Shown here piece after piece: positions 35,106 to 38,582 of a stretch of 40,881 bases of DNA; within the stretch, counting starts at the first letter, position 1, and every line of letters starts with the position of its first letter. The stretch is taken from positions 1 to 40,881 of the forward strand of contig CAYMMJ010000001.1 in assembly GCA_964391535.1 (NCBI GenBank), in the 5' to 3' direction. The DNA is from an uncultured Candidatus Saccharibacteria bacterium (GTDB taxonomy: Bacteria; Patescibacteriota; Minisyncoccia; Minisyncoccales; JAGGXC01). The notes under the pieces were generated by a model. The model searched no databases. It was not told where the DNA came from and worked only from the letters and a program-made list of their open reading frames with translations. A program made the position numbers and the translations under genes.

Positions 35106-35798
35106 ATGTTGACTATTTCTGCAAAGACCAGAGAAAAATTAAAAAGAAAAGCAAAACTACTAAGGAAAGAAAAAAAGATTCCTGCTGTTTTGTATGGCCA
35201 CAAAGTAAAAAGTACTCCCCTTGAGATTGATTATAGAGATTTTGAAAGAATTTATAGAGAAGCAGGAGAAAGCTCTTTGGTTACTTTGAAGATTGAAGGA
35301 GACAAAAAAGCATATCAGGTTCTTGTGCATGATATTCAAAGAGATCCTTTAAGTGGGGAATTCATACATGTTGATTTTTATCAACCTTCTCTAACCGAAA
35401 AAACAGAAGCAAATATTCCTCTGAAGTTTGTTGGAGAATCTGAAGCTGTTAAAAACTTAGGCGGAACATTAGTTAAAAATATCTTAGAAGTAGAAGTAAA
35501 AGCATTTCCTCAAGATCTTCCGCACGAAATAGAAGTTGATATAAGCAAGCTTAAAACTTTTGATGACCATATAAAAATTTCCGACTTAAATCTTCCAGAG
35601 AGAGTAGAAATAATTAGGGATCCTGGAGAAATCATAGTTTCTGTCACACCTCCTCAAAAAGAAGAAGTTGAAAAACCAAAAGAAGAGGAATCTAAAGAAG
35701 AAAAAACAGAGAAGAAAGGAGAGAAGACAAAAGAAGAGGAGAAGGAAGACAAGCAAGAAAGAAAGAAACAAGAAGGAGAGCAAAAAGGGGAGAAATAA
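35106..35798 (+). CDS. rplY: 50S ribosomal protein L25 / Ctc form (bL25) with a Glu/Lys-rich tail
   Basis: KKIPAVLYGHK........DY..F......AGESSL..L.I.G......VLVHD.Q.DP.....IHVDF. Two-domain Ctc length plus a low-complexity tail. Confidence 0.9.
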   Translation: MLTISAKTREKLKRKAKLLRKEKKIPAVLYGHKVKSTPLEIDYRDFERIYREAGESSLVTLKIEGDKKAYQVLVHDIQRDPLSGEFIHVDFYQPSLTEKTEANIPLKFVGESEAVKNLGGTLVKNILEVEVKAFPQDLPHEIEVDISKLKTFDDHIKISDLNLPERVEIIRDPGEIIVSVTPPQKEEVEKPKEEESKEEKTEKKGEKTKEEEKEDKQERKKQEGEQKGEK

Positions 35799-35805
35799 AG
35801 TTTCT

Positions 35806-37275: not shown

Positions 37276-38028
37276 TTATTTTAGAAGTTTGTTTATCTTT
37301 TTTATAATAGGATCTAATTTTCCGTCTAATATTTTATCGATATCGTGCCATGATTTTTTTATTCTATGATCTGTTATTCTATCCTGAGGGAAATTGTACG
37401 TTCTTATTTTTTCTGCTCGGTCAGCCGATCCTATCTGGGTTTTTCTTTCTCCTGCCAGTTCTTCTTGGGTTTTTTTTCTTTCTATTTCTAAAAGCCGGGC
37501 CGCCAAGATGCTTAAGGCATTTTCTTTATTTTCTAGTTGGTTTCTTTCAGTTTGTGAGGTTACTACTATACCTGTAGGAATATGAGTAATTCTTACTGCC
37601 GTTTCTCTCCGGTTTACATACTGTCCCCCGGGACCAGATGCTCTATAGTAATCTATTTTTAAATCTTCTGGTTTTATTTTTATTTCTGTCTTTGTTGGTT
37701 TTGGCAAAATAGCTACACTAGCAGTGGAAGTATGAATTCTTCCTCCTTTCTCTGTTTTTGGGATTCTTTGTACTCTGTGGACGCCTGCTTCGTGCCGTAA
37801 TTTATCCCAGGTGTTCTCTCCCTTTAGTTCAAAGATTACCTGTTTTATGCCACCCAGCGAAGTAGGATGAGAATCTAATAATTTTTGTGTCCATCCCTGA
37901 GATTTAGCGTAGTTAGTATACATCCGAAATAAGTCATTAGCAAAAAGAGCCGCTTCTTCTCCTCCAGCTCCTGCTCGTATTTCAACAATTACTGCCTTAC
38001 TTTCATTTTTAAAAGCAGAATCACTCAT
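37276..38028 (-). CDS. prfA: Peptide chain release factor 1 lacking N-terminal domain 1 (250 aa)
   Basis: RVQRIPKTEKGGRIHTS carries the PxT tripeptide typical of RF1, not the SPF of RF2. SGPGGQYVN carries GGQ. The protein begins at the equivalent of about E. coli RF1 residue 100 (EIRAGAGGEEAALFANDLFRMY). Confidence 0.85.
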   Translation of the reverse strand: MSDSAFKNESKAVIVEIRAGAGGEEAALFANDLFRMYTNYAKSQGWTQKLLDSHPTSLGGIKQVIFELKGENTWDKLRHEAGVHRVQRIPKTEKGGRIHTSTASVAILPKPTKTEIKIKPEDLKIDYYRASGPGGQYVNRRETAVRITHIPTGIVVTSQTERNQLENKENALSILAARLLEIERKKTQEELAGERKTQIGSADRAEKIRTYNFPQDRITDHRIKKSWHDIDKILDGKLDPIIKKINKLLK

Positions 38029-38030
38029 TA

Positions 38031-38273
38031 TTACTTTTTATGTTTTGATTTTTCTTTATTTATCCTTTCTTTTTTTGCTAATCTTTTTCTGAATTTTTCT
38101 ACCCTTCCCATTTTATCTATAATTTTCCCTTTTCCTGTATAAAACGGATGACAGTTAGAACAAATCTCAATTTCAATAAATTCTTTAGTTGATCCAACTT
38201 CAAAAATATTTCCACATGCGCACTGGACTTTTGCTTTTGGATAGTATTTGGGGTGTATGTCTTTTTTTGGCAT
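38031..38273 (-). CDS. rpmE: 50S ribosomal protein L31 (bL31), zinc-binding type A
   Basis: KKDIHPKYY...CACG...[11 protein letters not shown]. Its stop codon is 2 nt from the prfA ATG. Confidence 0.94.
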
Positions 38274-38286
38274 AATTTATATATTT

Positions 38287-38315
38287 ATATTAACTAAGAT
38301 AATAATAAAAATCAA
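38287..38315 (-). promoter_or_regulatory. Proximal rpmE promoter TTGATT-17-TAATAT
   Basis: Reverse complement of 38310-38315 is TTGATT, and of 38287-38292 is TAATAT. The rpmE ATG (38273) is 13 nt after the -10, so the leader is only a few nt. Confidence 0.45.
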
Positions 38316-38334
38316 GCAGGGCGCCAAGATATTA

Positions 38335-38485
38335 AATAAAGATGGTGTGTTAATGACACACCATATAATGAACAGAAAAGTGGAAGAGGAAAGGTACCCT
38401 TTACTTCCTGCTAGGAGGGGATGGGATGCCTCGTTTAGAGAATAAGATAATAGAGTACCTTTCCTCATTGTGCCATTAGGCACAT
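38335..38485 (-). ncRNA. Candidate structured RNA: small RNA or rpmE-prfA leader/attenuator. Strand assignment is tentative.
   Basis: Perfect 12-bp long-range helix (38386-38397 with 38455-38466). Perfect 9-bp hairpin (38342-38350 / 38356-38364) followed on the minus strand by CTTTATTTAAT. 6-bp hairpin (38469-38474 / 38479-38484). Consensus promoter immediately upstream on the minus strand. Confidence 0.4.
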
Positions 38486-38489
38486 TTTA

Positions 38490-38517
38490 ATATTATTCAA
38501 ATTATGATTTTTGTCAA
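38490..38517 (-). promoter_or_regulatory. Promoter TTGACA-16-TAATAT reading toward rpmE
   Basis: Reverse complement of 38512-38517 is TTGACA, and of 38490-38495 is TAATAT. It lies 7 bp from the -35 of the divergent rpsB promoter. Confidence 0.5.
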
Positions 38518-38524
38518 GAGTGTC

Positions 38525-38553
38525 TTGATTATTTTAAGAAACCTTGATATATT
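38525..38553 (+). promoter_or_regulatory. rpsB promoter TTGATT-17-TATATT
   Basis: -35 at 38525-38530 and -10 at 38548-38553, about 30 nt upstream of the rpsB ATG. Confidence 0.5.
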
Positions 38554-38582
38554 AGATATTGTTTGTTATTATTATATTTGTT

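Follow-up and report, generated by a model that had tools for sequence, protein, structure and literature searches.

The 40,881-nt stretch of DNA analysed here (from contig CAYMMJ010000001.1; the whole stretch is called the window and all positions are its coordinates) belongs to a low-GC (35%) genome of the candidate phyla radiation (CPR)/Patescibacteria and carries a densely structured element between the divergently oriented genes rpmE and rpsB, which encode ribosomal proteins L31 and S2 (Table 1). The spacer separating the two genes measures 309 nt (38274-38582), and a tRNA-Thr gene and the start of the 16S gene come after rpsB-tsf. The same divergent layout, with rpmE upstream of rpsB, is found in 52 of the 80 species representatives, and most spacers among those relatives are 60-200 nt long. 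A sequence-only reading of the window had described in this spacer an element of about 150 nt comprising four hairpins, a promoter on the minus strand and, on the plus strand, a 17-codon open reading frame (ORF); all of these, along with the length of the spacer, could be located as described. The element, whose own strand would be the window's minus strand, is examined here as a candidate small RNA (sRNA) gene and compared with the corresponding spacers of related contigs, which are designated by L numbers.

Table 1. Coordinates of the candidate sRNA element and of its genomic context in the window
Feature	Position	Strand	Description
RF1 (prfA), short form	37276-38028	-	immediately downstream of rpmE; Pfam-confirmed
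rpmE (L31)	38031-38273	-	Pfam-confirmed
rpmE promoter-like site (context, outside the RNA)	38287-38315	-	-35 TTGATT (38315-38310), 17 nt, -10 TAATAT (38292-38287)
Helix C	38331-38364	-	perfect 9-bp terminator-like hairpin (38342-38364), then CUUUAUUUAAU
Linker	38365-38385	-	U-rich, single-stranded, CUUCCACUUUUCUGUUCAUUAUAU, from helix B to terminator
Helix B	38386-38466	-	15-bp stem (38452-38466 with 38386-38400), 51-nt pyrimidine-rich loop; fold and comparison
C/U-rich tract	38413-38429	-	GCAUCCCAUCCCCUCCU, exposed in the helix B loop (plus strand AGGAGGGGATGGGATGC)
Helix A	38469-38484	-	5' hairpin UGUGCC-UAAU-GGCACA, 6 bp, at the predicted start; fold prediction
Element promoter	38490-38517	-	-35 TTGACA (38517-38512), 16-nt spacer, -10 TAATAT (38495-38490); 10/12 consensus
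rpsB promoter (context)	38525-38553	+	TTGATT-17-TATATT, TG-extended; -35 lies 7 bp from the element's -35
rpsB (S2)	from ATG 38583	+	Pfam-confirmed; tsf next

The minus-strand promoter proposed by the sequence-only reading was confirmed, and transcription is predicted to start from it at about 38483-38485, where the 6-bp hairpin here called helix A is present. The 12-bp helix of that reading, formed by GAGGAAAGGTAC (38386-38397) and its exact complement at 38455-38466, proved to be the core of the longer helix B, whose arms extend to 15 nt each with a single non-Watson-Crick position; the loop accordingly measures 57 nt when counted from the 12-bp stem and 51 nt from the 15-bp stem. The helix B repeat gives three matches at one mismatch or fewer, against 0.25 expected. 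The 9-bp hairpin, helix C, is perfect and was scored terminator-like on the minus strand, where it is followed by CTTTATTTAA, and the terminator thus predicted ends about 15 nt ahead of the rpmE -35 box. When compared with shuffled sequences, a 171-nt segment folds far more stably on both strands (z = -6.5 for plus and -7.1 for minus), and for the 150-nt transcript predicted from the minus strand (38484-38335) z is -8.1; the orthologous elements of L001 and L150 give z = -7.1 and z = -5.0.

The element was found in just four lineages, always in the rpmE-rpsB spacer: in the window's own species, represented by the near-identical contigs L081-085 and L115; in L150, whose RF1 is 92% identical; in the group of L001, L110 and L146-148 (RF1 about 90%, S2 78% identical); and in L151 (RF1 84% identical). 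L150 and L151 were recovered by an RF1-based search. Sources of the contigs that carry the element include JGI 3300013103, ENA ERZ27248458, SRR26701722 and GCA_021163265.1. It is absent from L152-154 (RF1 80-81%), in which a bare ATCAAG-AG-CTTGAT junction sets the -35 boxes back-to-back (...AATCAAG-AG-CTTGATTTTT...), and from the S2-based neighbours L086-088 (S2 at most 74%), of which L088 has a short hairpin only. Since these next relatives keep the -35 boxes of rpmE and rpsB back-to-back without it, the comparison indicates that the element is an insert of about 200 nt between the ancestral promoters, confined to one narrow Nealsonbacteria/Minisyncoccales-like clade. TCAAG stands at both edges of the insert and resembles a short duplication. 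The -35 box CTTGATTTTT of rpmE was kept on the gene-proximal side and is the box used by L088 and L152-154, which lack the element; in L151 the rpmE promoter-like site scores 9/12. The rpsB promoter box is likewise conserved in relatives without the element. Within the window, the -35 boxes of the element (TGTCAA on the plus strand) and of rpsB (TTGATT), 7 bp apart, form a near-palindrome TCAAGAGTGTCTTGA (38505-38531) that mirrors the ancestral ATCAAG-AG-CTTGAT junction of the relatives, and competition between the two promoters, or their co-regulation, is possible.

Both the element and its C/U-rich tract are single copy in the window. A scan of the metagenome with the pattern GAGGAAAG-N10-35-GGGATGGGATGC returned 54 hits, of which only L110 and L115 were genuine, both of known types; the other 52 arose by chance in GC-rich DNA, one of them RNase P RNA-like by its GAGGAAAGTCCGG motif only. 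A pattern scan of viral contigs gave two matches, both due to chance, and BLAST against phages and plasmids detected no copy of the element. The multiple copies expected of repetitive extragenic palindromes (REP) or miniature inverted-repeat transposable elements (MITE) were thus found neither in the window nor in the metagenome, viral, phage and plasmid sets. Furthermore, a covariance model built from three lineages found nothing in 80 other relatives. A 17-bp stem with a loop of about 55 nt in L086 was discarded as a homolog, having neither promoter nor terminator and only trivial similarity. Across the element, no difference separates L001-type contigs of different samples; just outside it, in the 5' region of rpmE, L147 (2240-2258) differs from L146 by a 7-nt indel corresponding to a TAAATTA repeat unit.

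All four lineages have the signals that would delimit a transcript, always on one and the same strand. Orthologous promoters, scored as consensus matches only, read TTGACA-16-TAAAAT in L001 (11/12), TTGACA-17-TAAAAT in L151 (11/12) and TTGACA-16-TAATAT in L150 (10/12), giving scores of 10-11/12 throughout; the site is the best of the scanned region in L001 and L151 and tied best in the window and L150. At the other end, a hairpin followed by a U-run occupies the same place in each lineage, with the rpmE -35 box coming next. Its stem is GUGUGU in the window, GUGUGC/GCACAC in L001, GUGUAG/CUACAC in L151 and GCGUUA/UAACGC in L150, and such freely varying stem sequence is what is expected of a plain intrinsic terminator. 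Helix A, of 5-6 bp, persists in L150 and L001 (AUGCC/GGCAU, where a double change has turned one G-C pair into A-U) and was not discernible in L151. In helix B the loop ranges from 45 to 51 nt and contains GCAUCCCAUCCC, invariant in the window, L150 and L001; the C/U-rich tract to which it belongs reads GCAUCCCAUCCCCUUCU in L150, GCAUCCCAUCCCUCCUC in L001 and GCUCCUCUCUCCUCA in L151. The linker carries the motif UGUUC(A/U)UU(A/G)UAU in the window, L001 and L151, and a variant UGCUCAUUAU in L150. Between the window and L001, identity is 74% over the promoter stretch, 67% over the linker and 82% over the rpmE promoter stretch (38287-38315), compared with 57% at four-fold degenerate sites of the flanking genes, and it falls to 31%, effectively random for the composition, in the stretch past the terminator; a 12-mer in the loop of helix B is invariant between the two. 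In L150 (66-93) a tandem duplication has doubled the 5' base of helix B, CGAGGAAA-GAGGAAAGAUACCC, which hints at slippage in a purine run, and the minimum free energy fold pairs the extra copy with a downstream stretch of the linker.

Comparison of the relatives' spacers revealed compensatory changes in helix B across the four lineages. All 15 of its pairs are kept in each of them; in 11 of the 15 both partners have been substituted, and not one is disrupted. Because MAFFT was unable to align L151 or helix A of L001, pair tables were made by hand in a script and the count by tool was limited to helix B in three lineages; that count gave 100% paired positions, five double-change pairs and a covariation of 0.40, compared with 0.23 in shuffles, none of 500 of which reached the observed value. 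Controls in which the partners were slid by one to three columns were only 50-63% paired, and RNAalifold recovered helices A, B and C unaided. The pairing also discriminates between the strands. Read on the minus strand, the one non-Watson-Crick position of helix B and the pair affected by the single-nucleotide polymorphism 38343 T>C (L085) in helix C are both U·G wobbles; in a plus-strand reading, each would be a C·A mismatch. This polymorphism is one of four within-species variants inside the element, the other three of which fall in loops or unpaired positions, among them 38478 A>G in the loop of helix A. The G·U pairs and the population polymorphism fit the minus strand only.

These observations incline us, by a little, to accept the element as an independently transcribed, non-coding sRNA gene on the minus strand, about 150 nt long and running from about 38485 to 38335, and as a new, clade-restricted candidate. 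A near-consensus sigma-70 promoter would start the transcript, in which the 5' hairpin would be followed by the 15-bp helix with its 45-51-nt loop, the U-rich linker and the intrinsic-terminator hairpin. Its working part would be the C/U-rich tract (GCAUCCCAUCCC...) that the long stem leaves exposed; acting in trans, this tract would base-pair with a purine-rich sequence in a target RNA or else be bound by a protein with affinity for pyrimidine-rich single strands. The terminator would keep the sRNA transcript separate from that of rpmE-prfA, which has its own promoter. The earlier proposal of a structured element with its own minus-strand promoter and an end at the 9-bp hairpin is thereby borne out to the extent that promoter, helix B and hairpin with U-run recur in four lineages.

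Several points weigh against an sRNA gene. Promoter and terminator are consensus matches only, and read-through into rpmE may occur. Four lineages amount effectively to three or four independent comparisons, and one of them is recognised marginally: the three-lineage model scores L151 at 12.7 bits (E about 0.05 in its own 5.7 kb, filters off), and its homology is therefore argued mainly from position and architecture, the match being the best in its locus and agreeing in both placement and strand. Scanning the C-rich tract for duplexes against the whole window yielded no outstanding target. Template-switch concerted evolution of inverted repeats could keep the arms complementary without selection at the RNA level. 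Finally, other relatives carry unrelated palindromes or repeats at the same site, some without a promoter to transcribe them, from which it follows that the rpmE-rpsB site tolerates or attracts hairpin-forming DNA.

The main rival, which we hold to be unlikely, takes the element as a leader or attenuator of rpmE-prfA: TTGACA would be a distal second promoter, the structured RNA a 5' leader, the hairpin with its U-run a terminator regulated, for example, by L31 or by translation status, and the 150-nt RNA the attenuated product. The element indeed lies directly upstream of rpmE on the same strand and is only ever found at the rpmE-rpsB locus, and autoregulatory L31 leaders are known in other phyla. 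However, the conserved site CTTGATTTTT...TAATAT intervenes between terminator and gene and is the sole rpmE promoter in relatives without the element, the terminator stem changes as freely as that of a plain terminator, and neither the window nor L001 matches an L31 or other ribosomal protein leader of Rfam at E < 10. No conserved antiterminator pairing was seen, alternative folds not having been searched systematically; the sole alternative hairpin in the window, which the sequence-only reading had described at 38382-38408 as competing with the 12-bp helix, does exist there but is not conserved, being lost in L001 through a 7-nt deletion and weakened in L082 and L084, which lack one T of CTTCC. 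The sequence-only reading had left a stand-alone sRNA and an rpmE-prfA leader side by side; because the ancestral rpmE -35 box sits after the terminator and no L31-leader match was obtained, we favour the former. That the inverted repeat is instead a feature of the DNA or a neutral palindromic insert (an insertion relic, a protein-binding site or a cruciform), with arms kept alike by template-switch correction, seems decidedly improbable. The locus lends this idea some substance, as 8 of 37 related spacers, L001 included, hold perfect inverted repeats of at least 10 bp that exceed every same-site shuffle (13 bp in L002, 15 bp with a 4-nt loop in L088, 16 bp in L049, 13 bp in L076 and 10 bp in L086); those of L088 and L002 lie directly between the -35 boxes, where transcription is not expected, and the duplication-like TCAAG edges point the same way. 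Yet such a feature leaves unexplained the near-consensus promoter and the hairpin with U-run on one strand in four lineages, as well as the one-strand wobble exceptions, the invariant loop 12-mer and the conserved linker, and a 15-bp stem with a 45-51-nt spacer makes a poor cruciform. Unrelated palindromes or short tandem or dispersed repeats between the -35 boxes were noted in L002, L003, L010, L030, L049, L076, L086 and L088, and the rpmE-rpsB site looks like a hotspot for inserts able to form hairpins.

The opposite strand was considered as well, either as an mRNA with a short ORF or as a leader of rpsB. AGGAGG/GGAGGG and AUG do stand in a block that is invariant between the window and L001, and TTTT follows the hairpin 38469-38484 in the window. 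The ORF (38426-38479), preceded by AGGAGG at 7 nt as the sequence-only reading had pointed out, spans 17 codons (MPRLENKIIEYLSSLCH*), but its product is not conserved: L001 has 37-42 aa in place of 17, with the shared CTTTCCTC in different frames. More generally, ORFs on both strands differ between the window and L001 in start, frame and length and none is conserved, the alignment of the two elements containing indels of 1, 4 and 7 nt; a non-coding element is consistent with this comparison. L150 has CCUUCU (AGAAGG) where the Shine-Dalgarno (SD)-like letters stand in the window, and AGGAGG is common within coding regions. An SD-like sequence (GGAG, GAGG or AGGA) precedes just 3 of 45 window genes (long ORFs), and in six relatives (L009:6148-6200, L017:6354-, L018:6624-, L036:6446-, L046:6465- and L047:6645-) the tail of the 16S rRNA is without CCUCC (GGAUCAUCUCAU, GGAUCACUCAAU, GGAUCAUUACAU and similar); the window itself breaks off at about position 292 of its 16S gene and does not reach the 3' end. 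The genome thus appears to initiate translation without SD sites, and for both reasons an SD-driven short ORF is implausible. No plus-strand promoter able to transcribe the element recurs across the four lineages, the conserved rpsB promoter being downstream of it; a terminator-like site on this strand was flagged in two of the four lineages only; and the C·A mismatches fall on this strand. We consequently regard a plus-strand origin as very improbable, and the short ORF of the sequence-only reading did not hold up. A type I toxin-antitoxin system was rejected, MPRLENKIIEYLSSLCH being neither hydrophobic nor conserved. As to a divergent housekeeping or regulatory RNA, such as that of the signal recognition particle (SRP, 4.5S RNA), 6S RNA, a ribosomal protein leader or a riboswitch, that existing models would miss in CPR, CPR RNAs are often divergent, and both the strong promoter and the size, about 150 nt, would be in keeping with a housekeeping RNA. 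Nevertheless, at gathering score Rfam matched only the 16S and a tRNA in the whole window and nothing in the spacer, where at E <= 10 only spurious eukaryotic or enterobacterial matches of 8-14 bits appeared, the L001 ortholog behaving alike; membership was found for none of the L31 leaders, the S2/rpsB leader, SRP, 6S, tmRNA, RNase P, RsaE, riboswitch or ribozyme families, in agreement with the sequence-only reading, which had matched the element to none of SRP, 6S, tmRNA and RNase P RNA by eye. The AGCA/GGAA-like loop letters of the window are missing in L001 and L151. Because the 5' and 3' ends are unpaired, the closing stem of a 6S-like or SRP-like RNA is missing, and both identities were rejected on anatomy; and since close relatives (RF1 at most 81%) lack the element altogether, it is unlike an essential RNA. 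A known RNA in divergent form is accordingly the least credible of the alternatives, and we give it hardly any weight.

If the element is a stand-alone sRNA, the near absence of SD sites and of the anti-SD sequence means that its C-rich loop cannot serve as a seed of the classical anti-SD type and that its class of targets must differ. A bolder form of the sRNA reading, which we put forward as rather improbable, is that of a riboregulator recently born in the divergent ribosomal protein promoter region of a CPR clade without SD initiation, with the invariant C-rich loop AUCCCAUCCCCUCCU as its working part. AUCCCAUCCCCUCCU resembles the lost anti-SD tail of 16S rRNA; the loop might trap purine-rich stretches of mRNA, or else a protein of the translation machinery that binds single-stranded pyrimidines, and the output of the riboregulator would be coupled to ribosome synthesis because its promoter stands back-to-back with that of rpsB. 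Such a riboregulator would be among the first defined regulatory RNAs of Patescibacteria.

We conclude that the element is well supported as a structured and probably transcribed RNA of recent origin in a poorly explored phylum. It offers a clean, comparatively supported candidate for an sRNA gene in CPR, with mapped putative promoter, terminator, helices and candidate working loop. Being present in four lineages and facing an empty site in the next relatives, it would also provide a before-and-after case of the birth of an RNA gene between back-to-back promoters, and a conserved C-rich loop that cannot act in the textbook way, in a clade that appears to lack both SD and anti-SD sequences, makes its target worth asking about. 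Its narrow distribution limits its weight. A non-exhaustive search of the literature returned almost nothing on regulatory RNAs of CPR/Patescibacteria and nothing usable on CPR sRNAs or on SD usage in Patescibacteria.

Two neighbouring genes deserve mention. RF1, downstream of rpmE, is just 250 aa long, and its PCRF domain aligns only from profile position 96 on, the N-terminal part being absent; this short form is common to most close relatives, some others having 345-390 aa. It starts 2 nt past the rpmE stop codon, a gap replaced by a 4-nt overlap in L146, and this arrangement suggests translational coupling of rpmE and RF1. Farther away, the ORF list extends an SLT/PcsB-like gene upstream to a TTG start (35668-35805), giving it a very basic, K/R-rich N-terminus. 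Gene callers begin the gene on related contigs at the ATG, which yields 466-468 aa, and the extension is for this reason probably an artefact.

The element can finally be set against known systems. It resembles REP/MITE-like inserts in filling an intergenic spacer with long inverted repeats, in its insert-like origin with TCAAG at either edge and in its palindrome-prone site, but it is single copy, has no other copies in the metagenome, viral, phage and plasmid collections, lacks terminal inverted repeats at the ends of the insert and possesses conserved strand-specific transcription signals. Like the L31 (rpmE) and S2 (rpsB) leaders, it is a structured RNA in a ribosomal protein neighbourhood, directly upstream of rpmE on the same strand; unlike them, it has its own predicted promoter and terminator, the ancestral rpmE promoter lies between it and the gene, and it finds no covariance-model match. 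It differs from the S2 leader further in being upstream of, and antisense to, the rpsB promoter, and hence outside the rpsB mRNA. The closest parallel is with trans-acting sRNAs whose C-rich seeds lie in unpaired loops, among them RsaE/RoxS of Firmicutes and RNAIII of Staphylococcus with its UCCC loops. In common with these, the element has its own promoter and intrinsic terminator (both predicted here), a length in the range of about 100-150 nt, a stable stem on which a C-rich tract is held unpaired, and single-stranded, U-rich sequence ahead of the terminator. In contrast to them, its tract lies in a very large loop of 45-51 nt closed by a 15-bp helix, it shows no homology of sequence or structure to them (no Rfam match at E < 10), and its host belongs to the CPR and makes essentially no use of SD sites, whereas the usual target of C-rich seeds is a G-rich SD site. 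By analogy, the element would thus work most like the C-rich-loop sRNAs of the RsaE/RoxS type, without being a member of that family.

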